From Escherichia phage LQ5: DNA of 64,000 nucleotides. Shown piece by piece: positions 3,268 to 57,649 of the stretch. Numbering within the stretch: position 1 is the first letter of the stretch; each line of letters opens with the position of its first letter. The stretch lies in the sequence record OR677401; one strand, written 5' to 3'. The position numbers and the translations under genes were made by a program. Below the pieces are notes generated by a model. That model was not told the origin of the DNA and ran no database searches. It worked only from the letters and a program-made list of their open reading frames with translations.

Positions 3268-3307
3268 GTTTACAAGGTCTATAGGCATGATACTATAGAC
3301 CTATCAA
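3268..3307 (+). promoter_or_regulatory. early-type promoter cassette: GTTTACA (-35) + conserved TGATACTATAGACCTATCAA box, with inverted repeat GGTCTATAG/CTATAGACC
   Basis: Conserved sequence read directly; repeated at 3835, 12224 with near-identical flanks. Confidence 0.6.
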
Positions 3308-3333
3308 AACAAACTAACCGCACGGAAATCAAA

Positions 3334-3558
3334 ATGAAAACTTATCAAGAATTTATCACCGAAGCTAAAAGACATGAAGATGAACTGCCAATTGTTACAA
3401 AAACCTTTGATGGCACACTGGCTGATTTTAAAAAAGTCCCTAGTGATAAGCTTGCTAAATTGACTGGCTCTATCAATGAAAAAGGTGGCAAGGTCACGTT
3501 TTCTGCTGGCGGCATAGCCAATCTTAAAAAACTTTTGAAAGCCGCTGGCGCTGAATAA
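3334..3558 (+). CDS. internal protein (Ip) with capsid targeting sequence
   Basis: N-terminus MKTYQEFITEA is the conserved T4 internal-protein targeting signal cleaved by the prohead protease. Confidence 0.7.
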   Translation: MKTYQEFITEAKRHEDELPIVTKTFDGTLADFKKVPSDKLAKLTGSINEKGGKVTFSAGGIANLKKLLKAAGAE

Positions 3559-3559
3559 A

Positions 3560-3832
3560 ATGAAATCATACCAAGAATTTATCGCTGAATCTATTCTTAA
3601 TGAAGAAGTAAAAATTAACAAATCTGTTAAGACCATGATTGATAATATAAATCATCTCTATAACATCGATTTGACTAATCACGTAACTTTAGGCAATAAG
3701 CGAAACTTTTTTGTTTTTGATACTTCAGAACTCGACCAGAATCAAATTAACAATATTGAACGTTTTGCTAATGAAAAAGGGCTGCGCCACGAAACAGCTG
3801 GTTATAAAAAGTATGCAATTTATCTAAAATAA
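3560..3832 (+). CDS. internal protein (Ip) with capsid targeting sequence
   Basis: N-terminus MKSYQEFIAES; tandem to previous Ip gene. Confidence 0.65.
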   Translation: MKSYQEFIAESILNEEVKINKSVKTMIDNINHLYNIDLTNHVTLGNKRNFFVFDTSELDQNQINNIERFANEKGLRHETAGYKKYAIYLK

Positions 3833-3834
3833 TT

Positions 3835-3874
3835 GTTTACAAGGTCTATAGGTGTGATACTATAGACCTATCAA
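3835..3874 (+). promoter_or_regulatory. early-type promoter cassette (GTTTACA + TGATACTATAGACCTATCAA)
   Basis: Near-identical copy of cassette at 3268. Confidence 0.6.
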
Positions 3875-3899
3875 AACAAATGAGTGATTGGAGAATAAA

Positions 3900-4085
3900 A
3901 TGAAACGTTGTGAATTAATTAGAAATGTTACTGCACTGGTCGCCGTTACTGCTTTTGGCTTTAGTATGTTTGCAGGATTCATGCTCGATATGCTTTCAAC
4001 TTCCGAGAATATAATCTCTTTAGTAGTGACATTTTTAATTGGTTCAATCTCTTTTGTTATGGATAAAATCTCTAAAGGTGAATAA
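3900..4085 (+). CDS. small hydrophobic membrane protein
   Basis: ATG at 3900 preceded by GGAG; ORF-track start at 3888 is an alternative TTG; hydrophobic 62-aa product. Confidence 0.5.
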   Translation: MKRCELIRNVTALVAVTAFGFSMFAGFMLDMLSTSENIISLVVTFLIGSISFVMDKISKGE

Positions 4086-4486
4086 TGAACGTTGAATATT
4101 ATGTATATGCGGATTATGAAAATAATCCGTCTAAAGATGAAGATAACCGTTTAGGTATTGATGCTTTTGAATCCCCTGCTGCAGCTTGGCAATGGGTTGA
4201 AAGTACTGATATTCCTTACCGTTATATTGAAGTGGTAGACCATGCAGGAAACAAGTATCCTAAGGAAGCATATGTTCCTTCTGGAAAGGTAAATTTCCTT
4301 TTGTTCGCGGGTGATAACTACTATCCACGTGGTGGCTATACCGATTTAATCGCTAAAGCTGCCACTGAAGATGAACTACGTGAAATTGTTAAAGAAAACG
4401 AGAATAAGTTTCTTTACGGCTCCGATCGTTTTGACTGGTGGCAGATTGTTAATGCTAATACCCATACTATTGTAGACGAGGGTTAA
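4085..4486 (+). CDS. hypothetical protein
   Basis: 133-aa ORF, start overlaps upstream stop. Confidence 0.5.
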   Translation: MNVEYYVYADYENNPSKDEDNRLGIDAFESPAAAWQWVESTDIPYRYIEVVDHAGNKYPKEAYVPSGKVNFLLFAGDNYYPRGGYTDLIAKAATEDELREIVKENENKFLYGSDRFDWWQIVNANTHTIVDEG

Positions 4487-4771
4487 ATGCTATACGTTAA
4501 GGTTACTAATCCAGAGAATGGATATAATTCAGACCAGGTTGCAGCAGAGTTACTGATTCGCAACTTTGGCAAAGATGCCGTGCTTGATGTTCAACAGGTT
4601 AATATTGGCCGTAGTTCAAGCGACGTTAAACTCAAAGTTAACGGCCAACGTTATAATTCTGTTAACTTTACTTTTTATACCGCAACTGAAAACGGATTGG
4701 TCGAATACGACATCTTTAAAAATCCTTTGAAGATTGCTTCTATTAAACTTGATTACATTAATATGCTTTAA
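4487..4771 (+). CDS. hypothetical protein
   Basis: 94-aa ORF directly following previous stop. Confidence 0.5.
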   Translation: MLYVKVTNPENGYNSDQVAAELLIRNFGKDAVLDVQQVNIGRSSSDVKLKVNGQRYNSVNFTFYTATENGLVEYDIFKNPLKIASIKLDYINML

Positions 4772-5172: not shown

Positions 5173-5246
5173 GGCCCTGTAGCTCAATTGGTTAGAGCAT
5201 CCGGCTCATAACTGGCAGGTTTCCGGTTCAAGTCCGGATGGGGCCA
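5173..5246 (+). tRNA. tRNA with CAT anticodon (Met-type gene; probably the AUA-reading Ile tRNA as in T4); no encoded CCA
   Basis: Hand-folded cloverleaf: acceptor GGCCCTG/TGGGGCC, D stem GCTC/GAGC, anticodon loop CTCATAA, T arm TCCGG-TTCAAGT-CCGGA. Confidence 0.75.
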
Positions 5247-5287: not shown

Positions 5288-5953
5288 ATGTTCCATTACA
5301 CTTATAAAATAACAAACAAAATTAATAATAAAATCTATATAGGTGCCCATTCAACCGAAAATTTGAATGATGCATATTTTGGTTCTGGTAAACTCTTAAA
5401 AAAGGCCCAAGCCAAATATGGTATAGAAAATTTCTCTAAAGAAATATTAGAGTTCTTTGACGATAAAACCTCTATGTTTGAGTCAGAAAAGAATATTGTG
5501 ACTGAAGAGTTTTTAAAGCGCCCTGATGTTTATAATTTGAAATTAGGTGGTGAAGGTGGTTGGGACCATTTAAACACTGAAGAATATTTGGATAAAAAGA
5601 AAGAAGCTTCCTTAAAAGGAGTTGCCGCTTTTAAAACCAGATTTGAGAACGACCCAGACCTTAAAGAAAAATATCGTAAAATGGGTTCAGAAAAGTTTAA
5701 ACAACTTTGGGATAATCCTAAGTATAGAGAGAAATTTTCAAATACTAAATCTTTCTTGGGTAAGACCCATTCAGATGAAACCATAAATAAAATGAAAGAA
5801 TCTCACGCCAGAAATAAACATCAACAAGGTGAAAATAATTCCGGATACGGAAAAATGTGGATTCATTCTTTAGAAGAAAAAGTTTCTAAACGTATTAACA
5901 AAACGGATATTATTCCTGAAGGTTGGAATAAAGGCCGTAAAATAAAATTTTGA
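5288..5953 (+). CDS. GIY-YIG homing endonuclease (SegB-like) within the tRNA cluster
   Basis: N-terminal YTYKITNKINNKIYIGAH motif; Lys-rich NUMOD-like C-terminus; lies between the two tRNA genes as T4 segB does. Confidence 0.75.
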   Translation: MFHYTYKITNKINNKIYIGAHSTENLNDAYFGSGKLLKKAQAKYGIENFSKEILEFFDDKTSMFESEKNIVTEEFLKRPDVYNLKLGGEGGWDHLNTEEYLDKKKEASLKGVAAFKTRFENDPDLKEKYRKMGSEKFKQLWDNPKYREKFSNTKSFLGKTHSDETINKMKESHARNKHQQGENNSGYGKMWIHSLEEKVSKRINKTDIIPEGWNKGRKIKF

Positions 5954-5958: not shown

Positions 5959-6033
5959 GTCCCGCTGGTGTAATGGATAGCATACGATCCTTCTAAGTTT
6001 GCGGTCCTGGTTCGATCCCAGGGTGGGATACCA
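5959..6033 (+). tRNA. tRNA-Arg (anticodon TCT), CCA encoded
   Basis: Hand-folded: acceptor GTCCCGC/GTGGGAT, anticodon loop CTTCTAA, T arm CCTGG-TTCGATC-CCAGG, 3' ACCA. Confidence 0.8.
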
Positions 6034-6949: not shown

Positions 6950-6989
6950 GTTTACTCTTTCGTAGAACATGATACTATAGACCTATCAA
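6950..6989 (+). promoter_or_regulatory. early-type promoter cassette (GTTTACT + TGATACTATAGACCTATCAA)
   Basis: Conserved box read directly. Confidence 0.6.
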
Positions 6990-7013
6990 AACAACAGTGT
7001 GAAGGAGAGTAAA

Positions 7014-7277
7014 ATGGATAATTATGGTGAAGTGTTTAATTTCTTTATGAAATGTGTTCCGGAAGAATTTGGTGCCACAGTTAACGATATTAAGGTTATC
7101 GGTCCTGAACACCCGGTGTATGAAACCTATGCAGTAATGGGTAATGAAGATGGACAGTGGTATACAATTAAAGTTGTGATTAATATGTTCTCAGCTGAAG
7201 GTTACGCCAAATCGTCTACCAAAGTTTACCATGGTAATGATTTTGATGCAGAAAATTATTTCAATAATATGAAATAA
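7014..7277 (+). CDS. hypothetical protein
   Basis: ATG at 7014 after GAAGGAGAG; ORF-track start 6999 is GTG. Confidence 0.55.
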   Translation: MDNYGEVFNFFMKCVPEEFGATVNDIKVIGPEHPVYETYAVMGNEDGQWYTIKVVINMFSAEGYAKSSTKVYHGNDFDAENYFNNMK

Positions 7278-7280: not shown

Positions 7281-7321
7281 GTTTACATGGGCTCATGATT
7301 AAGATATTATGAGCCCATAAT
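7281..7321 (+). promoter_or_regulatory. GTTTACA followed by perfect 10-bp stem-loop ATGGGCTCAT/ATGAGCCCAT enclosing a -10-like TATTAT
   Basis: Inverted repeat read directly; no T-run. Confidence 0.5.
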
Positions 7322-7335
7322 TTGAGGAGAACATA

Positions 7336-7734
7336 ATGAATATCGAAGATAAAGAAATGCAAGAGTTGTATAATTCATTAACACCTGAACAACAAAAATA
7401 TGCCAAAGAACTAGAGAAAGCTCTTACTTTCAACTTGGCAAAAACTGATTGGGCCGCGATGTATGAAGAAAAAACTAGATTAGAAATTGAAGCTGCTGAG
7501 AGAAATGAATGGGTTGTCGAAACCAAGATTTCTGATGGTGGTTGCTCTGTTGAGGTGTCTGCTGTAATTAAAGGTACCCATGGCGAAAAATCATGGGGCT
7601 GGCATAATGAAGCAAACAAACATATTGTTCTCTCAACGTCAAAAACTTATGGCCAAAGGGTTCCTGTATCTAAAGCTATTATTAAGCAAGCTCAATGGGA
7701 AGCCAATGAAATCTGCCTCGCAAAAATGAAATAA
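7336..7734 (+). CDS. hypothetical protein
   Basis: 132-aa ORF with GAGGAGA RBS. Confidence 0.6.
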   Translation: MNIEDKEMQELYNSLTPEQQKYAKELEKALTFNLAKTDWAAMYEEKTRLEIEAAERNEWVVETKISDGGCSVEVSAVIKGTHGEKSWGWHNEANKHIVLSTSKTYGQRVPVSKAIIKQAQWEANEICLAKMK

Positions 7735-7737
7735 AAT

Positions 7738-7773
7738 GTTTACAAACCTCAGAGGACAGGGTATAATGTCCTC
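7738..7773 (+). promoter_or_regulatory. sigma70-like promoter GTTTACA-N17-TATAAT with inverted repeat GAGGACA/TGTCCTC flanking the -10
   Basis: Read directly. Confidence 0.6.
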
Positions 7774-7810
7774 ATGGATTACAAAACGTTAACCAACTGA
7801 AGGAAATACT

Positions 7811-8404
7811 ATGAACACTTTAAAGAAAATCGTTGAATTCATTCGTTCTAAACTGGGCACCGCAATGGCTCAGAACCTGTCAATCGAAGACCAATACACA
7901 AAAGCTGCTTCTACTCTGATTGATAAAATCACTGAACTCCAGACTGCTCATGTTAAGTCTGTGAATGAAGAAAAACGTATTCGTGCATTGGCTAATGAAA
8001 AAGACCAGCTCGCTGCTTCTAAAGAACGTGAAATTCGTAAACTGATTGCCGAAGGCGCTGATGTCCAGGTACATGCTAAACTTGGCCTCCTTTATCGTCG
8101 TACAGCTACCCAGCTTCGTAAGAAAGCCGATGATTATATCGAAATGCGTAATGAAATTAAACTGAAGGTTAAGGAACTTGATGACTCTCGTCAGGAACTA
8201 GCCGTTAAGCTCGAGTACATTCGTGAAACTCGTAATATGGCTGCCCTTGGTATTGCTACTGCCGATGATGTTGTTGAAATCGCTGCACTGACCAAGATTG
8301 ATATTGAAGACACCCTACTGCGTGTAGAAACGTTTAAAGGCCCACAAGTTGGAATGGATACGACTTCTGCTGATATCGAAGACTACATTAATTCACTTAA
8401 GTAA
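7811..8404 (+). CDS. coiled-coil protein, possibly PspA-like
   Basis: 197 aa, heptad-rich charged helices; PspA resemblance is impression only. Confidence 0.55.
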
Positions 8405-8411
8405 TTTTACT

Positions 8412-8434
8412 GGGAGACTTCGGTCTCCCTATTT
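8412..8434 (+). terminator. intrinsic terminator GGGAGAC-TTCG-GTCTCCC
   Basis: UUCG tetraloop hairpin followed by T-rich tract. Confidence 0.6.
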
Positions 8435-8452
8435 GGAGGAGAGGAGAATATT

Positions 8453-8989
8453 ATGGGTTTATATGATAATTTGATATCAAATATTGATTGGTTTAAAAAT
8501 AGTGGTCTTTCCCATGAAACCAATTCAGTTCTTTATAGAATTCGCCAAGACCTAGGCTATTCAAACGATTTCTTAAGCAGAACATCTAGCCGTGGCGATA
8601 CTACCAAATTACCTTTTATTTTTGCTTTAGCTGAAGACCTTTCTTTTGAAGATGCTTTGGAAATTATTGACGTAAATCTGGCTATTCAACGAGTGGAATT
8701 CGCTGGGCTACGCTATTCAGTATACTCTTTAAATGAACCAAGCGATTATAAACAGCTTACTAATGCCGACGATGATTACCATTTAGTATGCTATTTGATG
8801 TTAGAAAATGGTGACCATTTTGGTATGGTCGACCGCCGCCCATCTTACTCTGATATTAAAAATTACGATAAAGACGAGCTTATTATTTTAGCCAATGAGT
8901 ATACATCAGAGATTCGAAAACAACAACGGAAGCTTAATCGTTTTATTGCTGAATGCCGTGAATACGCTAAAGAGGTTCAAAATGTATAA
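8453..8989 (+). CDS. hypothetical protein
   Basis: 178-aa ORF; C-terminal NRFIAECR motif shared with 8982 and 13203 products. Confidence 0.6.
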   Translation: MGLYDNLISNIDWFKNSGLSHETNSVLYRIRQDLGYSNDFLSRTSSRGDTTKLPFIFALAEDLSFEDALEIIDVNLAIQRVEFAGLRYSVYSLNEPSDYKQLTNADDDYHLVCYLMLENGDHFGMVDRRPSYSDIKNYDKDELIILANEYTSEIRKQQRKLNRFIAECREYAKEVQNV

Positions 8990-12223: not shown

Positions 12224-12263
12224 GTGTACAAGGTCTATAGGTGTGATACTATAGACCTATCAA
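12224..12263 (+). promoter_or_regulatory. early-type promoter cassette (GTGTACA + TGATACTATAGACCTATCAA)
   Basis: Near-identical to cassettes at 3268 and 3835, including the downstream leader. Confidence 0.6.
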
Positions 12264-12289
12264 AACAACAGAGTGAAATGGAGAATAAA

Positions 12290-12502
12290 ATGAAACTTTC
12301 TAACCAAGCAATCAACATGTTAAACGAAGTTCGTGCAGCTGGTGCTAAATGCCTGATGGTTAACACTCGTGACGGTGACCTTCGTCAAGCATTTGGTGAA
12401 TTGAAATCTGCTGACCTGGTTAAATGTTCAGTTGGTATTGGTAACGCACTTCGTGTATCCTTATCCCCTAAAGGTAAAATGTACTTTTTCAACAAAAAGT
12501 AA
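12290..12502 (+). CDS. hypothetical small protein
   Basis: ATG 12290 after GGAGAATAAA; ORF-track start 12212 lies inside the promoter cassette. Confidence 0.55.
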   Translation: MKLSNQAINMLNEVRAAGAKCLMVNTRDGDLRQAFGELKSADLVKCSVGIGNALRVSLSPKGKMYFFNKK

Positions 12503-14501: not shown

Positions 14502-14990
14502 ATGGATATTTTTGATATGTTACGTCAAGACGAAGGTCTTGATTTAAATCTTTATAAAGACACTGAAGGTTATTGGACTATTGGTATTGGCCAATTGATT
14601 ACTAAGAACCCTTCTAAAGATGTTGCTCGTGCTGAACTTGATAAGCTTATGGGTCGAGTTTGTAATGGTCGTATTACTATGGCTGAAGCCGAGCAACTCT
14701 TTAATCGATCGGTTGAAAATGCTCGTAGAGCTATTCTGCGTAATCCTAAATTGAAACCTGTTTATGATGTATTGGACGAAGTTCGTCGTTGTGCACTGAT
14801 TAATATGGTATTCCAAATGGGTGAAGCAGGTGTAGCAGGGTTCACTAACTCTTTACGTATGCTCCAACAGAAACGTTGGAACGATGCGGCAGTTAACCTG
14901 GCTCAATCCCGTTGGTATAAACAAACTCCTAATCGTGCTAAGCGTGTTATCGCCACCTTTAAAACCGGCACATGGGCTGCTTATAGATAA
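14502..14990 (+). CDS. e: lysozyme (endolysin)
   Basis: Strong match to recalled T4 lysozyme ([48 protein letters not shown]). Confidence 0.92.
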
Positions 14991-14995
14991 AAGCA

Positions 14996-15035
14996 GTTTA
15001 CATCTCCTAGAATTGTGATAGTATATCTACAGTTA
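14996..15035 (+). promoter_or_regulatory. degenerate early-type promoter cassette
   Basis: GTTTACATCTCC followed by TGATAGTATA box variant. Confidence 0.4.
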
Positions 15036-15077
15036 CTTGAACAGACCAATTAAAATATTTACCTTTAAGGAACCCGT

Positions 15078-15674
15078 ATGAAAACGTATAAAGAATTTAT
15101 CGCCGAAGCTTCTGTAGGAAAGGTCCAAGGCATTAATAAAGATGAGTGGACTTACAAAGGAAACGGCGTTGACAACCCAGGAAATGGTTTTAACGCTAAA
15201 ACAGCTCCTATTGAACGGTACTTGGCTACAAAAGCTTCCGACTTTAAAGCTTTCGCCTGGGAAGGACTTCGCTGGCGTAACGACCTAAATATTGAAGTTG
15301 ACGGACTTAAATTTGCTCATATTGAAGATGTTGTTGCTAGTAACTTAGATGCAGCTTTTGTTAAAGCTGACGGTGACCTTCGTCGCTGGAATTTAAAACT
15401 GTTCTCTAAACGGAAAGGCCCGGTATTTGTACCTAAAGCAGGTAAATGGACTATTGATAATAAATTGGCTAAAGCAGTTAACTTCGCCGGTCTTGAATTT
15501 GCCAAGCACAAATCAACATGGAAAGGTCTTGATGCAATGACTTTCCGTAAAGAATTTGCCGATGTTATGGCTAAAGGCGGCTTTAAGGCAGAAATAGATA
15601 CCTCTAAAGGTACGTTTAAAGACGCTAATATTCAGTACGCTTACGCCGTTGCTAATGCAGCCCGTGGTAATTAA
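15078..15674 (+). CDS. internal protein (IpIII-like) with capsid targeting sequence
   Basis: N-terminus MKTYKEFIAEA; 198 aa. Confidence 0.7.
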   Translation: MKTYKEFIAEASVGKVQGINKDEWTYKGNGVDNPGNGFNAKTAPIERYLATKASDFKAFAWEGLRWRNDLNIEVDGLKFAHIEDVVASNLDAAFVKADGDLRRWNLKLFSKRKGPVFVPKAGKWTIDNKLAKAVNFAGLEFAKHKSTWKGLDAMTFRKEFADVMAKGGFKAEIDTSKGTFKDANIQYAYAVANAARGN

Positions 15675-15698: not shown

Positions 15699-15749
15699 GT
15701 TTACATCTCCTGTAGTCATGATACTATAGACCTATCAACTACAGGAGAT
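15699..15749 (+). promoter_or_regulatory. promoter/stem-loop cassette: GTTTACA, arms ATCTCCTGTAG/CTACAGGAGAT flanking the conserved box; 3' arm holds the RBS
   Basis: Perfect 11-bp inverted repeat read directly. Confidence 0.65.
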
Positions 15750-15754
15750 TAAAA

Positions 15755-16171
15755 ATGACTCGTATCAACCTTACCTTAGTATCTGAATTGGCTGACCAAC
15801 ACTTAATGGCTGAATATCGTGAATTACCACGTGTTTTCGGTGCAGTTCGTAAGCATGTTGCTAATGGTAAACGTGTCCGTGATTTCAAAATCAGTCCTAC
15901 TTTTATCCTTGGCACAGGCCATGTTACATTCTTTTACGATAAGCTTGAATTTTTACGTAAGCGACAAATTGAGCTTATAGCCGAATGTTTAAAACGTGGT
16001 TTTAATATCAAGGATACTACTGTCCAGGACATTAGTGACATTCCTCAGGAATTCCGTGGTGACTATACTCCACACGAAGCTTCTATTGCTATATCTCAGA
16101 CCCGTTTGGATGAAAAAATTGCACAGCGTCCTACCTGGTACAAACATTATGGCAAGGCTATTTACGCTTAA
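15755..16171 (+). CDS. denV: endonuclease V (pyrimidine-dimer DNA glycosylase)
   Basis: 138 aa, near-identical to recalled T4 DenV ([35 protein letters not shown]). Confidence 0.95.
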
Positions 16172-18021: not shown

Positions 18022-18296
18022 TTGAAGATATCAAGGGTTATAAGCCGCATACCGACGATAAAATCGGTAAAGTAAACGCTATCAAAGATGCTGAAGTTCG
18101 TCTTGGGTTAATGTTTAAAGCTCTGGAAGAAGAACATGTTACTCATTATATGAACTTAGATACCGAAGAGGTTTCTGAACAAGAACTAGACCAGGCTCAT
18201 GAACGCATCACCCAGATTCGTAATGCAATTGACCGTCTGAAAGAAGCAAGCATGTGGGCGTGTCGTTCCGTTTTCCAACCCGAGGAAAAATACTGA
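18018..18296 (+). CDS. hypothetical acidic protein
   Basis: 92-aa coupled ORF. Confidence 0.5.
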   Translation: MIEDIKGYKPHTDDKIGKVNAIKDAEVRLGLMFKALEEEHVTHYMNLDTEEVSEQELDQAHERITQIRNAIDRLKEASMWACRSVFQPEEKY

Positions 18297-18505
18297 TGAA
18301 AATTGAAAGTTTACAAGATTTCCAGCGTATCATCGGTGAAGCCTGTACTGGCTACCACAAATACTTGCTTGATGACCGAATGGCCTGTCTTGAAGAAGGT
18401 GAAGTACAGTATGCAGCCCAACGCCTTGAACAGGTGAAAGAGTTTTACCCTGTACTGGTAGAAATTTGTTCAGCTGCTGGAAAACTTACCCCATTCCAAG
18501 AATAA
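18296..18505 (+). CDS. hypothetical protein
   Basis: ATG 18296 overlaps upstream TGA; ORF-track start 18254. Confidence 0.5.
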   Translation: MKIESLQDFQRIIGEACTGYHKYLLDDRMACLEEGEVQYAAQRLEQVKEFYPVLVEICSAAGKLTPFQE

Positions 18506-18509: not shown

Positions 18510-18560
18510 GTTTACATCTCCTGTAGACGTGGTACTATAGACCTATCAACTACAGGAGAT
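18510..18560 (+). promoter_or_regulatory. promoter/stem-loop cassette, same arms as 15699
   Basis: GTTTACATCTCCTGTAG ... TGGTACTATAGACCTATCAA ... CTACAGGAGAT. Confidence 0.65.
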
Positions 18561-18566
18561 TACAAA

Positions 18567-19025
18567 ATGTCAGAAATTAATTCAGAAGTATTCATCCGCC
18601 GCAATAAATTACGTCGTCAGTTCGAAACCGAATTCCGTGAACTGAATACGTCCATCAAAAAAGCCGCCATCAAGAGCGGAGTCCCAGCCTTCTTTATTAA
18701 GTACTCTAATCACTTGTTGGACCGTGCTATCCAACGTGAAATCGACGAAAAATACGTTTTTGCTTTATTCAAGCAACTCCATAACCATGTTAAAGAAATT
18801 CATGAATTTTTAATCCAGGAACCTCTACCTGATGTAGAATCCGAAATTGTCCCTGGTAAAGTGTATCGTCCATTGCGTCTCGAAATTACCGATAAAACCT
18901 TATGGCTAGGTATGACAGTAGACCGTAAACATCCTGATAAAGGATATTCCCTTAAATGTCGTATGGCATTTGTTAACTCTAAACGTTTAGAAGGTAAAAC
19001 CAGCACGAAAGTAATCTATCTTTAA
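18567..19025 (+). CDS. regB: RegB-like endoribonuclease (tentative)
   Basis: 152 aa; size and position between denV and tk as in T4; sequence match from memory only. Confidence 0.5.
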   Translation: MSEINSEVFIRRNKLRRQFETEFRELNTSIKKAAIKSGVPAFFIKYSNHLLDRAIQREIDEKYVFALFKQLHNHVKEIHEFLIQEPLPDVESEIVPGKVYRPLRLEITDKTLWLGMTVDRKHPDKGYSLKCRMAFVNSKRLEGKTSTKVIYL

Positions 19026-22376: not shown

Positions 22377-22381
22377 TCAAA

Positions 22382-22407
22382 GGTCTCACTTCGGTGGGAC
22401 CTTTTTT
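22382..22407 (+). terminator. intrinsic terminator GGTCTCAC-TTCG-GTGGGACC + T6
   Basis: Read directly. Confidence 0.7.
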
Positions 22408-22416: not shown

Positions 22417-22456
22417 GTTTACATCCTCTAGGAACATGATACTATAGACCTATCAA
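22417..22456 (+). promoter_or_regulatory. early-type promoter cassette (GTTTACA + TGATACTATAGACCTATCAA)
   Basis: Read directly. Confidence 0.6.
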
Positions 22457-22473
22457 CTAATGAGGAGAACAGT

Positions 22474-22710
22474 ATGAAACTTACAAGTACTACGGTTTCA
22501 TTAGAATATGAAATCAACGGTCGTATCCTTGAGATTAAGATATTCGACGACCGAAGTATCTTCGCTGATTATCGAGGATACAGAATTCGTCTAGAAAAGG
22601 ACGAGCTCAAGGAACCGTGGCTCCTTAAAGACACATTAAAGGGTTGTGGATGTAAACTGAAGACTACCCAAGCCCAAGAATTAATTTCTACTATCAACAA
22701 ATACTGGTGA
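22474..22710 (+). CDS. hypothetical protein
   Basis: 78-aa ORF with GAGGAGAA RBS. Confidence 0.55.
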   Translation: MKLTSTTVSLEYEINGRILEIKIFDDRSIFADYRGYRIRLEKDELKEPWLLKDTLKGCGCKLKTTQAQELISTINKYW

Positions 22711-24256: not shown

Positions 24257-25263
24257 GAACAGTTATGAAAGGCTACTTCGGTAGCCACCTTTATGGAACA
24301 AGTACTCCAGAATCTGATGTTGATTTTAAAGAAATCTTTGTTCCACATCCGCGTGATATTCTGTTAGGTACGGCTATGAACCATACCAACCTGAATACGA
24401 ATAACACTGCTTCCAAAAACACTAAAGATGATGTTGACCACGAGCTTTACAGTCTGAAATATTTCTTTAAACTGGCTGCTGAAGGCGAAACCGTTGCTCT
24501 GGATATGCTCCACACTCCACCTGAAATGGTGGTTAAATCTGATTTACCTGATGTATGGAAATTTATCCAAGACAATCGTTCACGGTTCTATACAACCAAC
24601 ATGAAAGCCTATTTAGGGTACGTCCGTAAGCAAGCTTCTAAATATGGTGTTAAAGGTTCTCGTCTGGCTGCTCTGCGTGGTGTACTGGCAATCGTTAACC
24701 AGATTCCTGAACAGTGGGTTGACTATCAAGAAGGAATCCCTGATAGACTTCGTCGTACTAAGGTAGAAGATATCAAACACAGACTCCCTGAAAATGAGTT
24801 CTGTGAATGGGTATTCCATAACCATGAGAAAACAGGCCCTCAAACGTTCTATACTGTTCTAGGACGTAAGTACCAAACTACTTTGTCTTTAATCGAGCTC
24901 AAGCAATCTCTGAATAAGCTTGATGCTGAATATGGCGAACGTGCTCGTAAGGCTGAAGCTAATGAAGGTATCGATTGGAAAGCTCTGAGCCATGCTTATC
25001 GGGCTGGATATCAATTGTTGGAAATCTACCAAACAGGCGACCTGGTATTCCCATTGCGCGAAGCCTCTATCATTAAGCTGATTAAGGCCGGTGAACTTCC
25101 ATTTAAAGAGGTCCAAGAACTTCTTGAAGACACTGTTGACCTGGTTGAAGTCCTGGCCCTGCAAGCCGCTAAGAACGGTATGCCTGCTAAGGTAGATATG
25201 AAGTTCTGGGACAAGTTTGTTGAAGAGGTATACCTTGACAACCACAACTCTTATTATCGATAA
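24253..25263 (+). CDS. Pol-beta-superfamily nucleotidyltransferase with large C-terminal helical domain
   Basis: N-terminal GS-x3-G-x5-SDVD motif (GSHLYGTSTPESDVDF); 336 aa. Confidence 0.6.
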   Translation: MRTVMKGYFGSHLYGTSTPESDVDFKEIFVPHPRDILLGTAMNHTNLNTNNTASKNTKDDVDHELYSLKYFFKLAAEGETVALDMLHTPPEMVVKSDLPDVWKFIQDNRSRFYTTNMKAYLGYVRKQASKYGVKGSRLAALRGVLAIVNQIPEQWVDYQEGIPDRLRRTKVEDIKHRLPENEFCEWVFHNHEKTGPQTFYTVLGRKYQTTLSLIELKQSLNKLDAEYGERARKAEANEGIDWKALSHAYRAGYQLLEIYQTGDLVFPLREASIIKLIKAGELPFKEVQELLEDTVDLVEVLALQAAKNGMPAKVDMKFWDKFVEEVYLDNHNSYYR

Positions 25264-25270
25264 CGAAGAA

Positions 25271-25459
25271 ATGAAGGTCTTTTTATCATATGGAAGACCC
25301 CATAAAACCCGACGTTGGTATCTTGAAGCTGTCTGTAAAGAAACCGGACGTCGAGTCAATATCAAGTACGTGTGCAAACCTACGCCTAAACAGACAAGAC
25401 AATTTGTTAACTGGGCTATAAATGATATACGCTTCCATAATTTTTGGAGCGCAATTTAG
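25271..25459 (+). CDS. small basic protein
   Basis: ATG 25271 right after NTase stop; 62 aa, Lys/Arg-rich. Confidence 0.35.
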   Translation: MKVFLSYGRPHKTRRWYLEAVCKETGRRVNIKYVCKPTPKQTRQFVNWAINDIRFHNFWSAI

Positions 25460-25480
25460 GAACCTTCGGGTTCCTTTTTT
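25459..25480 (+). terminator. intrinsic terminator GGAACC-TTCG-GGTTCC + T6
   Basis: Identical hairpin at 61751-61772. Confidence 0.75.
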
Positions 25481-25499
25481 GGGTTTAGTGCAAAAAAGA

Positions 25500-25539
25500 G
25501 TTTACACCTTCGTAGAGCATGTTATTATGGACCTATCAA
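25500..25539 (+). promoter_or_regulatory. early-type promoter cassette (GTTTACA + TGTTATTATGGACCTATCAA variant)
   Basis: Read directly. Confidence 0.55.
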
Positions 25540-25565
25540 ATCTACTGAGTGAAATGGAGAATATA

Positions 25566-26950: not shown

Positions 26951-26954
26951 TATC

Positions 26955-29475: not shown

Positions 29476-29505
29476 GTTTACATCCAAGGATGGATGGAGT
29501 ATAAT
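29476..29505 (+). promoter_or_regulatory. sigma70-like promoter GTTTACA-N17-TATAAT
   Basis: Read directly. Confidence 0.55.
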
Positions 29506-34333: not shown

Positions 34334-34337
34334 CATT

Positions 34338-34520
34338 ATGACTATCCAAGATAAAGAAATTAAAGCCGACCAGTATTATTTGGTAAATGGGCGTGCGGTT
34401 CGTGTAATTGCTGCTAGCGATTCAGACGTATGGTACCGTGTACTAGACCATAGAAATATTCCATTGATGGTATGTGACCGTAGTTTGTTTTGTTCGATAG
34501 CTAAGGAAATTAAATTATGA
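34338..34520 (+). CDS. hypothetical protein
   Basis: 60-aa ORF with GAGGAGAA RBS. Confidence 0.5.
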   Translation: MTIQDKEIKADQYYLVNGRAVRVIAASDSDVWYRVLDHRNIPLMVCDRSLFCSIAKEIKL

Positions 34521-35074: not shown

Positions 35075-35287
35075 ATGAATCCACAATCTTTATTGTCACA
35101 ACGTATTGCTGAAGAACGTCGTCAATTCTTTGAAAATATGAGAGCCCAAGGTATTGATGACGAACGTTTTCTAATTTGGTTTTGGGACCACAAGCACTCA
35201 AGCTGCTCCGGTGCTTTGTTACTTTCCGCTGGAATGATGTACGAAGGCTGGAAAGGTGCATTAAAATATAAATTGAAACAGCAATAA
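35075..35287 (+). CDS. hypothetical protein
   Basis: ATG 35075 after GAGGAAAA; ORF-track start 34982. Confidence 0.45.
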   Translation: MNPQSLLSQRIAEERRQFFENMRAQGIDDERFLIWFWDHKHSSCSGALLLSAGMMYEGWKGALKYKLKQQ

Positions 35288-35322
35288 TTTACAAACTCTT
35301 GGGACCAGAGTATAATGGTCCC
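35288..35322 (+). promoter_or_regulatory. sigma70-like promoter TTTACA-N17-TATAAT with inverted repeat GGGACCA/TGGTCCC around the -10
   Basis: Read directly. Confidence 0.55.
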
Positions 35323-35355
35323 ACGGATTATAAATTTTTAACTGAGGAAATTATT

Positions 35356-35685
35356 ATGTCACAAGCTATTAAAAACGTACTGAACTCTTTCGCTTTCGAT
35401 AAAGTAAACGAACTGATGAATACCGGTTTTGTGACTCCTGAAATTCTTGACCAATGGGTTGCTGAACTGCTGCCAATCATGCACTCTAAAGACCAGAAAA
35501 TTGGTAAGAACGGTATTCGTGAAATCCTGGTTCAATATATCCTTGATGAATTCGATGTCGCTGCCTTTGGTGTAGAATCTAAAGCTTGGGCCCCTGGTGA
35601 AATCACGGATAAAACCATCCGTCGTATGAAAAACCAACGTAAGAAAAAATTCGTTGACCTGAAAATTGTTAAGGCAGCGAAATGA
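35356..35685 (+). CDS. hypothetical protein
   Basis: ATG 35356; N-terminus MSQAI and leader shared with 27543 gene. Confidence 0.55.
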   Translation: MSQAIKNVLNSFAFDKVNELMNTGFVTPEILDQWVAELLPIMHSKDQKIGKNGIREILVQYILDEFDVAAFGVESKAWAPGEITDKTIRRMKNQRKKKFVDLKIVKAAK

Positions 35686-37815: not shown

Positions 37816-38670
37816 ATGAAATACATTACATACCTGACAATATATTCCGGGACTAAGCTTCCACCGTTTTATATAGGGTCCACTACTTTAGAGAAGCATT
37901 TAAAAGGATACCATGGGAGCGTCCTTTCTAAAGCATATAAAGAAATCTATAACAAGGAGCTTTTAGAGCATCCTGAATTATTTGACTCATGTATTGTAAG
38001 TGAACACCCTACAAGAGAAGAGGCTTTAGAAGCTGAAAGAATGTACCAGTTAAGAACCGATGCGGCCCAAAATCCTCTATTCTTTAATATGGCTGTCGCA
38101 GCTCCTAAAGGATTCTTTGGGCTTTCGCTACCTAAAGAGCAACACCCTCTTTACGGCTCTCATAATGCTAAAGGATATATTCATTCCTATAATCCTGTTA
38201 CATTAGAACAAACCTTTGCACCTACAGTCCCCGAAGGATACGTAGAAGGTCGTTCTCCTAATTATAAAGCGTCTAGTCATAATAAGGGTAAGAAGTGGTA
38301 TAACAATGGCGTTGATAAAGGATTATTTGTAGAAGGAAAACAACCTGAATCTTGGGTCCTTGGCAGTTTTCTAACCGATGAACATAAGAAAAACTTGAAA
38401 AAGACCGATGGGATATATGACCCTGATATTCAAAAAGAATTAAAAGAGCTTTGGATTTCTACTGGATTTTTGCCACCGTATAAATTTAGAGAAATAGCTT
38501 TAGCTAAAGGTTTTATGGATGGTAATTATCACAATTTGGTTTATAAAATTTTTAAGCCTACAGTTACAATTACTAGACCTAAGAAAATCTGGGCTAATGA
38601 CGGCATAAAAAGCTTTATGATTTCTGAGATAGAATTTAATAGTGAAATACATTATAAAGGTAGATTATGA
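37816..38670 (+). CDS. GIY-YIG homing endonuclease (Seg-like), free-standing
   Basis: N-terminal YITYLTIYSGTKLPPFYIGST motif; Lys-rich C-terminal half. Confidence 0.7.
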   Translation: MKYITYLTIYSGTKLPPFYIGSTTLEKHLKGYHGSVLSKAYKEIYNKELLEHPELFDSCIVSEHPTREEALEAERMYQLRTDAAQNPLFFNMAVAAPKGFFGLSLPKEQHPLYGSHNAKGYIHSYNPVTLEQTFAPTVPEGYVEGRSPNYKASSHNKGKKWYNNGVDKGLFVEGKQPESWVLGSFLTDEHKKNLKKTDGIYDPDIQKELKELWISTGFLPPYKFREIALAKGFMDGNYHNLVYKIFKPTVTITRPKKIWANDGIKSFMISEIEFNSEIHYKGRL

Positions 38671-42515: not shown

Positions 42516-43214
42516 ATGAAATTCTCTAAAGAAACTCTGAACATTCTGAAAAACTTCTCCAGTATTAACCCAGGTATCATGCTTAAGCCTGGTAACACTA
42601 TTCTAACTCGTTCAGTAACGGGTGCAAGTTATGGTGAAGCTACTGTAAGCGATACCTTTGATATCGAAGCCGCAATCTATGATTTGAACGGCTTCTTAAG
42701 TATTCTGTCATTGGTATCTGATAGTGCTGAAGTTTCGGTAAGTGAAGACCAAACCACCTTAATTATTAAAGACCAACGTTCAACTATTAAATGGCCTATT
42801 GCCGACCCAAGTACAATTGCATTCCCAAGCAAAGCTATTCCATTCCCGGTGGCTGAAGTTATTTTTGACCTTAAAGCCGAAGATTACCAACAGTTGATGC
42901 GTGTGTCCTCTGGATTGAGTATTGATACATTTGCTATCACTGTAGACAACGGTAAAATTGTAATCAATGGCTACAAACAAGTTGATGATAAGGACCTGGC
43001 ACGTCCATTGTATTCCTTAGTGGTTGCAGACCATGATGGTCCTGAATTCAAATTCATTATCAACAAAACCAATATGAAAATGATGCCTGCTGATTACCAT
43101 GTATTGCTATGGGCTCGTGGTGAAGGTCAGGATGCTCGTTTCGCAGCCAAGTTTGAAGGTTCACAAGCTTCTTATGTATTGGCTATGGAAGCAGGCTCAA
43201 GCCACTCGTTCTAA
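42516..43214 (+). CDS. 45: sliding clamp gp45
   Basis: 232 aa; strong match to recalled T4 gp45 (INPGIMLK.G, TIKWPIADPSTIAFP, KFIINKTNMKMMPADY). Confidence 0.95.
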   Translation: MKFSKETLNILKNFSSINPGIMLKPGNTILTRSVTGASYGEATVSDTFDIEAAIYDLNGFLSILSLVSDSAEVSVSEDQTTLIIKDQRSTIKWPIADPSTIAFPSKAIPFPVAEVIFDLKAEDYQQLMRVSSGLSIDTFAITVDNGKIVINGYKQVDDKDLARPLYSLVVADHDGPEFKFIINKTNMKMMPADYHVLLWARGEGQDARFAAKFEGSQASYVLAMEAGSSHSF

Positions 43215-43780
43215 TGTACATTTGCTATCATAATACAATAACAAATACCAAAACTAAGGATGTCTACCATTATTTCGGTAGACACCGTGTTACTCCTGAA
43301 GAATATTATGGTACTGGTAAATTTGTTAAGAAATGCAAACGAGAAAATGCTATAACTCCTGGTGTTTGGGAGTTTAGTATTGAGGTTGTCCACAAAGCGG
43401 ATACATTTAAAGAAGCCAAACTTATTGAAGAGGCACTTGTTAAAGAAGGTATTGCCAAGTATGGTTCACGTTGTGTTAATAAAGCTCCCGGTGGTCCGGG
43501 TGGTGTAGATTTCCACAGTGCTGAATCTAAACGTAAGATGTCTATCAGCCGAACCGGAAAATCAAGAACATTTTCCGAAAGCCATAAGCTTAATTGCTCT
43601 AAATGGCAACGCTCTGAAATATGGCAGAATTATGAAGAGCTCCGTAAGATTTGGATAGAACTTGGTATGCCTAAAAAGGGTAGATTTAGTACGCTTTTAC
43701 AAAATTATGGATATAATTATTCTGCAAACGAATTGAATAAAATTGTTAAACATTTTAATGAGGAAAATAATAATGAGTAA
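43214..43780 (+). CDS. homing-endonuclease-like ORF inserted between genes 45 and 44
   Basis: 188 aa; Lys/Ser-rich NUMOD-like repeats (SAESKRKMSISRTGKSRTFSESHK); no T4 gene at this position; family unassigned. Confidence 0.5.
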   Translation: MYICYHNTITNTKTKDVYHYFGRHRVTPEEYYGTGKFVKKCKRENAITPGVWEFSIEVVHKADTFKEAKLIEEALVKEGIAKYGSRCVNKAPGGPGGVDFHSAESKRKMSISRTGKSRTFSESHKLNCSKWQRSEIWQNYEELRKIWIELGMPKKGRFSTLLQNYGYNYSANELNKIVKHFNEENNNE

Positions 43781-48484: not shown

Positions 48485-48526
48485 GTTTACATACCACAAG
48501 GAACGTGGTAGTATCCTTCCTATCAA
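48485..48526 (+). promoter_or_regulatory. early-type promoter cassette variant
   Basis: GTTTACA + TGGTAGTATCCTTCCTATCAA. Confidence 0.5.
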
Positions 48527-48544
48527 CTACATGAGGAAATTACA

Positions 48545-48781
48545 ATGGAAGCTTTAATCGTTAGTGCTGGTGTTTTAGGATTCGGTTCTCTGGTTATTAT
48601 GTTCATCGGTTACTTTTTACCATGGATTCTGGCTCTTCTGCGAGGCACTCGTAGTAATGTCGGAATTTTCTTCCTTAATCTCCTGTTAGGCTGGACGATG
48701 ATTGGTTGGGTAGTGGCTTTAATCTGGGCTATCGTCGCTGAACGTAAATCAAACGCACAAATCATTATTGTTAAGCAATGA
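48545..48781 (+). CDS. imm: superinfection immunity protein Imm-like
   Basis: 78-aa two-TM protein with LLGWTMIGWVVALIWA motif; position after gene 43. Confidence 0.7.
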   Translation: MEALIVSAGVLGFGSLVIMFIGYFLPWILALLRGTRSNVGIFFLNLLLGWTMIGWVVALIWAIVAERKSNAQIIIVKQ

Positions 48782-56630: not shown

Positions 56631-56650
56631 GGAGCTTCGGCTCCTTTTTT
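56631..56650 (+). terminator. intrinsic terminator GGAGC-TTCG-GCTCC + T6
   Basis: Read directly after gene 41 stop. Confidence 0.75.
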
Positions 56651-56660
56651 GTTTTTAAGG

Positions 56661-56700
56661 GTTTACATCTCCTGTAGGCGTGATACTATAGACCTATCAA
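56661..56700 (+). promoter_or_regulatory. early-type promoter cassette (GTTTACA + TGATACTATAGACCTATCAA)
   Basis: Read directly. Confidence 0.6.
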
Positions 56701-56713
56701 CTTGGAGAACAAA

Positions 56714-57031
56714 ATGAAAACCATCGACTGTAAAGCAGAATATAAAGTGTATTATCACGGAAGTTGTAGTGTTGCTAATATCGGTAATATGCTTTGTCCT
56801 CCTGAGGAGACAGGAGTTCTGTCTGAAACCGGTCGTAAGAAAAACCTAAATCGTGTGTTCTTTACTGAAGATATCGGTTTGGCTAAGATTTATGCTGGAC
56901 GTGCAGCTCGTTCAGTGGGAGGAGAACCCCGTCTTTATCGTGTAATTGCTCCGGTGGATGTGGTTTGTTTAAATGATACTAAAGGCGCTACGGTTTATCA
57001 TGCTGAATGGGCCTTCTGCGAGGAAATCTAA
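56714..57031 (+). CDS. hypothetical protein
   Basis: ATG 56714 after GGAG; ORF-track start 56702. Confidence 0.5.
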   Translation: MKTIDCKAEYKVYYHGSCSVANIGNMLCPPEETGVLSETGRKKNLNRVFFTEDIGLAKIYAGRAARSVGGEPRLYRVIAPVDVVCLNDTKGATVYHAEWAFCEEI

Positions 57032-57226
57032 ATGTCTGAATCAATTAAAGTAAAATTTGTCGGCCATTTCGCCAACGGTGATACCGCTACCAAAGAAGCT
57101 TCAGTGCGTGAAAACGATATCGTGTGGGTGACTACCCAATTCGCTGAAGTCAATAATATTTTGGTTAAGGCGTATGTCGACGACGTAGAAGTTTATGAAC
57201 ATGATGCCCGTATTGAGGAAATCTAA
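57032..57226 (+). CDS. dmd: Dmd-like antitoxin (inhibitor of RnlA/LsoA-type toxins)
   Basis: 64 aa; VKFVGHF ... VWVTTQFAEVNNILVKAYVDD parallels recalled T4 Dmd. Confidence 0.55.
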   Translation: MSESIKVKFVGHFANGDTATKEASVRENDIVWVTTQFAEVNNILVKAYVDDVEVYEHDARIEEI

Positions 57227-57367
57227 ATGGAAGAATTTGAATGTGTAGTATGTGGTTGTTCGGTCTGTGAAGACCAGGCAGTATTTGATGCTTGGGACAA
57301 CGCAACCTGTTTAGACTGTGACAGCGAATTCGAAGAAATTGCTCATAAACATGAAGGCGAGGAATAA
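57227..57367 (+). CDS. small zinc-ribbon peptide (46 aa)
   Basis: CVVCGCSVC ... CLDCD; abuts dmd stop and next gene start; below ORF-track cutoff. Confidence 0.45.
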   Translation: MEEFECVVCGCSVCEDQAVFDAWDNATCLDCDSEFEEIAHKHEGEE

Positions 57368-57607
57368 ATGAATATCGTACTAATGAAACCAACTCCTAGC
57401 TCTTTTTGGAATAAATCTTTCGGTAAGCATAATATGTTTATCCAACGTACCGTAAACAACTGGGAACTAGTTCTTTCAGTGGGCCACAACGATTATGAAC
57501 AAGAATACGTAGAGTTCTTCGAATTTCCTGTGAAGCCCACTAAGCGTCAGATTCGTCAGACAAAACGTAAATTCCGTAAAATTTCTTTGGAAGATTCATT
57601 AAAATAA
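57368..57607 (+). CDS. hypothetical basic protein
   Basis: 79-aa ORF. Confidence 0.5.
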   Translation: MNIVLMKPTPSSFWNKSFGKHNMFIQRTVNNWELVLSVGHNDYEQEYVEFFEFPVKPTKRQIRQTKRKFRKISLEDSLK

Positions 57608-57608
57608 A

Positions 57609-57649
57609 GTTTACAACGGTCTATGGTAGTGATACTATGGACCTATCAA
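57609..57649 (+). promoter_or_regulatory. early-type promoter cassette (GTTTACA + TGATACTATGGACCTATCAA)
   Basis: Read directly. Confidence 0.6.

Follow-up and report, generated by a model that had tools for sequence, protein, structure and literature searches.

Early-promoter cassettes of a T4-like phage with arms predicted to mask the Shine-Dalgarno sequence of read-through RNA

A stretch of 64,000 nucleotides (nt) of Escherichia phage LQ5 (record OR677401; hereafter the window) carries repeated cassettes in which a GTTTACA motif and a conserved box, TGATACTATAGACCTATCAA, precede a short leader and a start codon. We favour, with a probability of roughly 0.6, the view that early-promoter cassettes of this kind mask the Shine-Dalgarno (SD) sequence of RNA read through from upstream, and that transcripts of the cassette's own promoter escape. 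The window belongs to a Dhakavirus, a T4-like phage of the JS98 group; Shigella phage PSD9 matches it at 98.8% identity, and Escherichia phages WG01 and QL01, both of the genus Dhakavirus, at ~98%.

In the proposed mechanism, an anti-SD 5′ arm would lie inside the promoters of denV, regB, the nrdC.8 homologue, orf34338 (a 60-amino-acid open reading frame, ORF) and modB, and in weaker form in those of sp, imm and orf56714 (a 105-amino-acid ORF upstream of dmd). RNA from upstream early, middle or late promoters would carry both arms and bury the SD in a hairpin of 10–12 base pairs (bp). RNA of the gene's own promoter would start 3′ of the 5′ arm and lack the hairpin, so its SD should be free. 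With the SD hidden in read-through RNA only, translation would thus be tied to the gene's own immediate-early promoter, and genes such as denV, regB, nrdC.8 and modB would be translated only during the short time in which early promoters fire. Each promoter-plus-gene unit would form a self-contained, insulated module.

The promoter core and predicted hairpins over the Shine-Dalgarno sequence

With up to three mismatches, the box matches the window 11 times, where chance would give 0.01, and always on the + strand; the repetition described in an earlier note on this DNA is therefore real. The matches start at 3288, 3855, 6970, 12244, 15719, 18530, 22437, 25520, 26920, 56681 and 57630. GTTTAC(A/T) stands 5′ of every box, and a GGAG-type SD and an ATG follow 18–31 nt 3′. 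Between GTTTACA and the box lie 13 nt (14 at 57609) instead of the 14–16 nt given in that note, whose list of copies stands for the 11 full boxes and needs amending otherwise: those at 34280 and 48485 retain only the CCTATCAAC part of the box, the one at 12224 reads GTGTACA, and about nine more early promoters without a full box, found by a relaxed scan, were missing from it (7282, 7739, 10937, 14997, 16161, 29477, 35288, 61784 and 63396). In viral contigs, a 14-mer scan returned mostly chance matches; a 26-base pattern took its place.

Read as a promoter, the cassette consists of TTTACA, a 16-nt spacer, TG-n-TACTAT and AGACCT, followed by an A as the seventh base after the −10 element. It has the −35 GTTTAC, the TG-extended −10 near TATAAT and the AT-rich upstream sequence (e.g. 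aaaataatttaaaaagg) of T4-type sigma-70 early promoters, for which we required a spacer of 16–18 nt between −35 and −10; "UP/-35/TGn/-10" is a recognised class of T4 early promoters (PMC2988021). Promoter and terminator scans identified the embedded promoters as early sigma-70 ones, neither of the late (TATAAATA) nor of the middle type. Judging from this geometry, from which +1 was predicted for every cassette, the box is the extended −10 to +5 segment of such promoters, and the cassettes appear to be sigma-70 early promoters joined to a short leader with a GGAG SD, with a predicted start at the A of ATCAAC.

A promoter search in the first 78 kb of T4 (NC_000866) showed that the T4 denV promoter, GTTTACATCTCCTGTAGGTATGATACTATAGACCTATCAACTACAGGAGAACACTAAAATG, is the same cassette, exact box included. 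ATCAAC at +1 is found at several T4 early promoters, and T4 has homogenised another core variant, TGGTACTATACAACTATCAACTAC, at four or more promoters (e.8, nrdC.10, nrdC.8 and imm.1). Given the denV match and T4's own homogenised variant, we regard the box as a lineage-specific, homogenised T-even promoter core and not as a separate element. In view of the parallel between the T4 core and the Dhakavirus box, promoter cores may have evolved in concert within each lineage, and the near-identity of the copies would be kept through recombination or gene conversion between promoters.

A common spacer variant in the cassettes of relatives, TCTGCTTTAAACA, holds TGCTTTA, the MotA-box consensus of T4 middle promoters. 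We rejected it as a middle-promoter MotA box, for it lies 7 nt from the −10 element where 11–13 nt is usual. The same spacer gives a short inverted repeat, GTTTA...TAAAC, with the −35 element.

At five promoters, all on the + strand as is every gene of the window, the SD pairs strongly with a segment of the promoter. The denV cassette (15699–15757) comprises the −35 GTTTACA, a 5′ arm ATCTCCTGTAG (15705–15715), the box (15719–15738) with a TG-extended −10 TACTAT, a predicted +1 at 15734, a 3′ arm CTACAGGAGAT (15739–15749) that contains the SD GGAG, and the ATG at 15755; its read-through fold reaches −20.7 kcal/mol. The regB cassette (18510–18569) has the same inverted repeat (ATCTCCTGTAG/CTACAGGAGAT), with arms at 18516–18526 and 18550–18560, the box at 18530–18549 and the ATG at 18567. 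In the cassette of the nrdC.8 homologue (26900–26957; ATG at 26955), the arms ATCTCCGGTAG (26906–26916) and CTACTGGAGGT (26940–26950) form two G·U pairs; the 5′ arm of relatives, TCTCCAGTAG, gives a Watson-Crick pair where the window has G·U. The inverted repeats quoted in the earlier note, at 15705/15739 and 26906/26940, are exact in their coordinates. The orf34338 promoter (34280–34340) has a diverged box, TATAGT...CCTATCAAC, and arms TCTCCTCACGTG (34290–34301) and CACATGAGGAGA (34321–34332) that pair at 11 of 12 positions, with a fold of −21.6 kcal/mol. At modB (63395–63450), the 5′ arm ATGACCTC(TA) (63422–63431) extends from the end of the −10 element to +1, and the 3′ arm (TG)GAGGTCAT (63438–63447) spans the SD and runs up to the ATG at 63448; modB of T4 shares this layout but has other arms.

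Folding from the −35 element to just past the ATG distinguished three hairpin layouts. In the first (3269, 3836, 12225 and, in a variant form, 57610), the spacer AGGTCTATAG pairs with CTATAGACCT in the box and the stem ends at +1; the G+C-rich stems around the −10 elements of 7282, 7739 and 35288 are similar. In the second (denV, regB, nrdC.8 and orf34338), the spacer pairs with the SD region just 3′ of the box, in stems of 10–12 bp and −18 to −22 kcal/mol. In the third (modB), it is the −10/+1 segment that pairs with the SD. At least 12 of the 22 window promoters have stems of −15 to −21 kcal/mol. The 3′ arm with the SD, earlier attributed to several copies, is strongly paired at 15700 (denV), 18511 (regB), 26901 (nrdC.8), 34281 (orf34338) and 63396 (modB), and partially at 57610 (sp), 56662 (orf56714), 48486 (imm) and 29477; by folding, 3269, 3836 and 12225 show no SD pairing, their spacer pairing inside the box. 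The 5′ arm sits inside the promoter, either in the −35/−10 interval or in that from −10 to +1, and would therefore be absent from any transcript of that promoter.

Partition-function folding was used to compare RNA from 60 nt upstream of the −35 element (read-through) with RNA from the predicted +1 (own), in terms of the mean unpaired probability of the SD core. Read-through RNA has a closed SD (0.00) at all five strong promoters; the own-RNA values are 0.32 for denV, 0.26 for nrdC.8, 0.78 for orf34338, 0.46 for modB and 0.02 for regB (30 nt of coding sequence included). The corresponding read-through and own values are 0.02 and 0.27 at sp, 0.09 and 0.74 at orf56714, 0.11 and 0.47 at imm, and 0.17 and 0.61 at 29477; at the remaining window promoters, SD accessibility is the same in both RNAs. 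Shuffles of the promoter segment reach values as low as those of the five strong cases in at most 2% of trials (2% for orf34338). The read-through hairpins, of −17 to −21 kcal/mol, stand against weak own-transcript structures, whose minimum energies are about 0 to −5 kcal/mol if no more than 30 nt of coding sequence is included and −6 to −9 kcal/mol if 60 nt is. In predicted folds, the proposal of the earlier note that read-through RNA hides the ribosome-binding site and RNA of the embedded promoter does not is thus borne out for closing at five of five promoters and for opening at four of five, with regB as the exception.

T4 behaves alike: in its read-through RNA the SD is closed (0.00) at denV, regB, nrdC.8, modB and motB.2, with 0.06 at nrdC.10, and in the own RNA of the same promoters it is unpaired at 0.38–0.87. 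Predicted SD masking is therefore not a peculiarity of the window but a general, gene-specific feature of T-even phages.

Covariation of the arms and alternative roles of the stems

The pairing is specific to each cassette's own leader. Over 69 distinct cassettes from the window and about 15 related contigs, the spacer–leader duplex energy is bimodal: 17 lie at −10 kcal/mol or below, where z relative to shuffled spacers ranges from −3.0 to −7.4 (−4 or less in 15), and the others give no spacer–leader signal. Own 5′ segments paired with own leaders beat permuted partners in the window (p = 0.00015, 25 promoters) and in T4 (p < 5e-5, 26 promoters), and the complementarity reaches beyond the SD core.

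Among paralogous box cassettes, the half of the stem outside the SD changes in step on its two sides, as in the short pairs TGTAG/CTACA, AGTAG/CTACT, ATTAG/CTAAT and TTT/AAA and in the arm pairs TCTCCTGTAG/CTACAGGAGA, TCTCCAGTAG/CTACTGGAGG, TCTCCATTAG/CTAATGGAGA and ATCTCCTTT/AAAGGAGAT. In a set of 16 such sequences, chosen by the SD-complement half of the 5′ arm only, 82% of cells pair, compared to 35–54% with the partner slid by one to three columns; pairs 13–45, 14–44 and 7–51 vary on both sides.

In other T4-like genera, the regions upstream of the denV, regB and nrdC.8 orthologues keep the design with unrelated arms, and covariation across these genera is strong at denV and regB. As evidence, these orthologues are more independent of one another than the paralogues. 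The denV orthologues have second-layout arms ATCTCCGTTTG/CAAACGGAGAT, TTCCTCCAAG/CTTGGAGGAA, TTCTCCTGTAGATG/CATCTACAGGAGAA (14 bp) and TCTCCTGTG/CACAGGAGA, or third-layout arms TAGTGTTCTC/GAGAACACTA, ATGTCCTCCTA/TAGGAGGACAT and GATGTCTTCC/GGAGGACATC (with U·G); at regB we found TTTCTCCTCTTTATG/CATAAAGAGGAGAAA (15 bp) and, in T4, TTTCCTCTTGACTG/CAGTTAAGAGGA. In nearly all orthologues the 3′ arm ends −2 to +8 nt from the ATG, and the 5′ arm is found now in the spacer, now in the −10/+1 segment. As SD-anchored, ungapped stem searches are fitted to the structure, evidence was taken only from the variety of pair types, three to five at each stem position outside the SD, and from the G·U bias. Stem mismatches are of the G·U type in 14 cases and of the A·C type in one (9 versus 1 without jumbo-phage terminators). 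The arms thus covary in related phages, one of the two points on which the earlier note had staked its idea. MAFFT with RNAalifold recovered no structure from 14 promoters of different genes and genera, because arms of varying length and position are misaligned; a scan of modB orthologues yielded close relatives only, without arm variation.

The G·U excess would match selection on sense-strand RNA, unlike DNA pairing, and it weighs against a reading that we consider very improbable: that the repeats act in DNA, as a cruciform or hairpin for recombination or as the site of a dimeric protein, or are a by-product of concerted evolution combined with a pyrimidine-rich spacer. This reading draws on the junctions and chimeras at cassettes described below, on the speculation that a recombination protein recognises the stems of the promoter-early stem-loops (PeSLs) of phages RB49 and phi1 (PMC2839356), and on the CT-rich sequence common after the −35 element of T4 early promoters. 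The 14-to-1 bias nevertheless fits sense-strand RNA pairing only. Moreover, the complementarity exceeds the SD core and is specific to the own leader, the 5′ arm moves between two places while the 3′ arm is always over the SD, and the arms differ wholly between genera, unlike a protein operator.

A second alternative, that the stems are transcription terminators or attenuators, has been proposed and partly shown for the PeSLs of RB49 and phi1: the PeSL211/210 stem-loop lowered downstream lacZ as much as rrnB T1 did (PMC2839356). The first-layout stems, which covary too, reach no further than +1 and have no access to the SD; they would therefore need some terminator- or attenuator-like role. 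For the SD-pairing stems such a role is improbable. We defined an intrinsic terminator by a G+C-rich stem, a loop of 3–8 nt and a U-tract; the SD-pairing stems have loops of 21–27 nt and no U-tract and were rejected as candidates, the terminator scan finding none at 15700, 18511 and 26901 and calling none of these stems. Their 3′ arm is placed relative to the start codon and not to the promoter. Canonical intrinsic terminators do sit just upstream of five other promoters, 6951, 22418, 25501, 56662 and 61784 (at 22379–22404, at 25458–25475 and at three more places), and in the same scans none precedes a strong SD-pairing cassette. An indirect version may form part of the masking mechanism itself: an untranslated cistron would be exposed to Rho-dependent polarity, and this could yield the attenuation that a PeSL stem has been reported to cause (PMC2839356).

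The GGAG in the 3′ arms brings in the endoribonuclease RegB, which cuts this motif in unstructured SDs and is inhibited by structure (PMC3014915; PMC1702504). By this inhibition, masking would as a side effect shield the GGAG of read-through RNA, which would therefore be protected at these sites. Whether this is instead the main role of the SD hairpins, or whether they stabilise long transcripts, is a third alternative; we find it unlikely, though less so than the two before, and it may act alongside SD masking. Polycistronic read-through RNA would then stay intact at the junctions and promoter-proximal RNA would be cleavable. GGAG is in every leader, regB itself lies in the window behind such a hairpin, and the T4 denV SD is RegB-resistant in vivo (PMC1702504). 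That resistance was, however, ascribed to the sequence 3′ of GGAG, and an A-rich graft made the site cleavable in vivo (PMC1702504). A hairpin that hides GGAG from RegB also hides it from ribosomes, so that sequence cannot separate the two effects, and in some relatives the third-layout stem runs over the AUG, which points to control of initiation.

Translational coupling, finally, would have the downstream gene on read-through RNA translated only when a ribosome that completes the upstream ORF melts the 5′ arm. Stop codons 10–12 nt before the 5′ arm at regB, nrdC.8 and orf34338 speak for it. The denV stop is ~30 nt upstream, however, a terminating ribosome covers some 5–7 nt past the stop, short of the arms, and the same cassette adjoins different upstream genes among phages, so that there is no stable coupling partner. 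We hold coupling to be a poor candidate, ranking between the terminator and the DNA readings.

Several observations weigh against SD masking as we propose it. Only about a quarter to a third of promoters pair the SD, and most cassettes, being of the first layout or behind terminators, lack such pairing, so the mechanism fails to cover the whole cassette family. At regB the SD remains poorly accessible in the own transcript (0.02), yet that structure is weak (−4.6 kcal/mol). The stop codons lying just 10–12 nt before the 5′ arm at regB, nrdC.8 and orf34338 mean that terminating ribosomes might partly open the stem there. Few independent events underlie the covarying arm types of close paralogues, and the anticorrelation between an upstream terminator and a strong SD hairpin (0/5 versus 5/17) is not significant. 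The model also presumes that read-through RNA is present at effective levels and that the hairpin forms during coupled transcription and translation.

Beyond the window, we tentatively extend SD masking to T-even phages including T4, which would possess a sizeable class of immediate-early promoters with an internal anti-SD arm, the promoter of origin deciding both translation and RegB cutting. A second part of this extension, taken with the same reserve, is that denV, regB, nrdC.8 and modB have retained the design across genera even though their arm sequences were fully replaced. If true, read-through RNA would be silent at chosen genes, among them those of the RegB nuclease and the ModB ADP-ribosyltransferase, and the promoter–gene units would be insulated modules portable by recombination. 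Some of the old patterns of immediate-early versus delayed-early proteins could be accounted for in this way, as could a structured, RegB-resistant class of GGAG. T4 is a reference system for phage gene regulation, and as T4 denV has the same cassette, the proposal is directly testable there. The cassettes would also be compact natural parts for synthetic biology, combining a promoter with a translational insulator.

Further cassettes, gene exchange and content of the window

The first-layout cassette at the internal-protein locus (3268–3336) pairs AGGTCTATAG (3275–3284) with CTATAGACCT (3293–3302) in the box at −16.8 kcal/mol; its stem ends at +1, the SD is unpaired, and read-through and own RNA are alike in SD accessibility. 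Two more of this layout, found by box match and fold, lie at 3835–3902 and at 12224–12292, the latter with the −35 variant TGTACA and its true ATG at 12290. Orthologues of the 12224 cassette in relatives have TTTACA at −35, and TGTACA in the window may be a promoter-down change. The first-layout hairpins (3275–3302, 3842–3869 and 12231–12258) end exactly at the predicted start, without a U-tract, and do not resemble intrinsic terminators. Their stems covary across genera as well (AGGTCTATAG/CTATAGACCT, AGGGCTAT/ATAGCCCT and GGGCCAT/ATGGCCC), and these hairpins are probably under selection.

Four box cassettes follow a terminator: that of e.8 (6950–7016), with a canonical intrinsic terminator upstream and weak SD pairing; that at 22417–22476, behind the terminator at 22379–22404, with a partial TCCTC/GAGGA plus TAG/CTA stem; that of the nrdC.10 homologue (25500–25568; three mismatches), behind the terminator at 25458–25475; and that before orf56714 (56661–56716), whose 3′ arm is truncated (CTTGGAGA) and whose counterpart in one relative has a perfect TCTCCAGTAG/CTACTGGAGA stem. 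The sp cassette (57609–57669; one mismatch, 14-nt gap) has its main hairpin between spacer and box and a GGTAG/CTACC contact beside the SD, and the diverged imm cassette (48485–48547) masks the SD partially.

The two early promoters 7282 and 7739 (7281–7813) carry G+C-rich stems around −10, TGGGCTCAT/ATGAGCCCA and GAGGACA/TGTCCTC, that resemble RB49 PeSLs. At 35287–35358, a GGGACC/GGTCCC stem encloses the −10 element, and the promoter matches that of T4 motB in spacer, −10 and discriminator (TTTACA through GGTCCC). The early promoter of an ipIII-like gene (14996–15080) has a degenerate TCTCCTAGA spacer.

Compared to WG01 and IME08, the window shows 22 insertion, deletion or replacement events, 6 of which edge a promoter cassette where ~1.7 would be expected from the space that cassettes occupy. 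The junctions lie at 3248–3254, 3830–3890, 14975–14995, 18294–18503, 25257–25485 and 63390–63396. Window positions 3830–3890 correspond to WG01 8075–8506, where WG01 has an extra Ip7 gene inserted exactly at the 3835 cassette; an extra WG01 ORF ends exactly at the −35 element of the ipIII-like gene. The insertion or deletion (indel) at the regB cassette ends at 18503 and the replacement before nrdC.10 at 25485, both relative to WG01; the modB junctions with IME08 and JS98 fall exactly at −35. For the regB, denV and modB cassettes, the upstream neighbour gene varies among phages, with the switch at −35. Other window indels are homing-endonuclease insertions, unrelated to cassettes.

Chimeric cassettes occur too. 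The JS98 nrdC.8 cassette joins the spacer TCTCCATTAG, identical to that of another JS98 cassette (TCTCCATTAGACA), through the box to a CTACTGGAGG leader, which weakens the stem from about −17 to −11 kcal/mol; another contig joins a first-layout spacer to a CTACTGGAGG leader. Such chimeras suggest crossovers or short conversion tracts within the box. Sharing 40–60 bp of near-identity, cassettes can also act as sites of crossover at which genes are gained, lost or replaced. The view of cassettes as shuffling sites, already raised in the earlier note, gains from these junctions and chimeras, which would fit PeSL-like modular shuffling. SD masking would give a functional reason for cassettes to move along with their genes.

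Annotation transferred from WG01 and IME08 gives the window the gene order of the T4 early region: 3, 1, 57A/B, internal proteins, trna.x, e.x, e, ipIII, denV, vs.x, regB, vs, tk and rI; then nrdC.x, 55.x, 55, 47, 46, 45, 44, 62, regA, 43, imm, uvsX and 41; and last dmd, sp, 61, 56, soc, mrh, modA.x and modB, all on the + strand. An Rfam scan of the window returned two tRNAs as its sole matches at gathering score, and no Rfam family matched the cassettes. These tRNA genes, tRNA-Met(CAT) at 5173–5246 and tRNA-Arg(TCT) at 5959–6033, are the only two of the window, where T4 has eight. Between them lies a GIY-YIG ORF (5288–5953), absent from WG01, that recalls segB of the T4 tRNA cluster.

A 357-amino-acid ORF at 32242–33315 is a SegE-like GIY-YIG homing endonuclease (Pfam PF19835, E = 5e-34) and takes the place that gene 49 (endonuclease VII) has in WG01 and T4; tblastn found no homologue of WG01 gp49 in the 64-kb window. 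The same stretch is present in PSD9, E33, ABTNLS3, Bp7, FB and 005 with 91–98% identity over 88–100% of its length. Three ORFs without a Pfam match are absent from WG01, namely 464–1129 (221 amino acids) between genes 2 and 3, 37816–38670 (284 amino acids) near 47, and 43214–43780 (188 amino acids) between 45 and 44; their positions suggest homing-endonuclease-type insertions.

Comparison with known systems

T4-type early promoters, PeSL-like elements and the masking of a ribosome-binding site relieved by an internal promoter are all known. Apparently undescribed is a recurrent, conserved SD masking built into early promoters; such a phylogenetically supported version would add a layer to T4-type early gene control. 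Recurrent, covarying anti-SD arms in early promoters were found in none of the T4 reviews, the PeSL paper, a five-genome comparison, the RegB papers or full-text searches, a coverage that leaves out the older T4 literature, where a single gene may be mentioned. No T4 start-site dataset was found in the full-text searches.

The cassettes are like T4 early promoters in the GTTTAC −35, the TG-extended −10, the AT-rich upstream sequence and their position before early genes (PMC2988021; PMC1524935). They differ in the core that was homogenised: the Dhakavirus lineage uses TGATACTATAGACCTATCAA at about 11 promoters in 64 kb, and T4 uses TGGTACTATACAACTATCAACTAC.

With the PeSLs of RB49 and phi1 (Arbiol et al. 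2010, PMC2839356) they share an intergenic position in front of small accessory genes, a repeated unit made up of an early promoter, a stem-loop, an SD and an ATG, stems between or over the −35/−10 boxes, and indels or replacements bounded by cassettes among relatives; two window copies flank internal-protein genes. PeSL-like sequences have been noted in JS98, and analogous elements at T-even internal-protein loci (PMC2839356, citing Repoila et al. 1994). The match to PeSLs drawn in the earlier note thus stands for layout and bounded indels but not for homology. PeSLs have E. coli-consensus promoters and GGGG...CCCC stems, where the window has the T4-type consensus and AT-rich or mixed stems, with GGGC/GCCC-type stems only at 7282 and 35288; their stems are defined as terminators or attenuators, often polyG/polyC, and SD pairing is unmentioned. 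T-even elements have indeed been called analogues, not homologues, of the RB49 PeSLs (PMC2839356).

The 3′ arms share GGAG, the RegB cleavage motif, with the targets of RegB/S1, and regB itself has such an arm. RegB sites consist of GGAG with A-rich 3′ sequence in unstructured RNA, whereas the window motif is predicted to be structured in one transcript class only.

The closest parallel is with the T4 leaders of e, soc, 49 and I-TevI, in which SD or AUG is buried on the long RNA, and the short RNA from an embedded promoter, lacking the 5′ arm, is translated (PMC3014915). These are the only T4 genes for which the reviews covered here list hairpins masking the ribosome-binding site, all with late or middle promoters. 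As in those leaders, the SD of the window cassettes is paired in predicted folds of upstream-promoter RNA, and the predicted own start lies 3′ of the 5′ arm. The e, soc, 49 and I-TevI leaders use late (gp55) or middle promoters and silence early read-through of late genes; in the window, the embedded promoter would be an immediate-early sigma-70 one with the 5′ arm within it, and the logic would be reversed in time. Unlike those cases, the design of the window recurs at many genes and is kept across genera.

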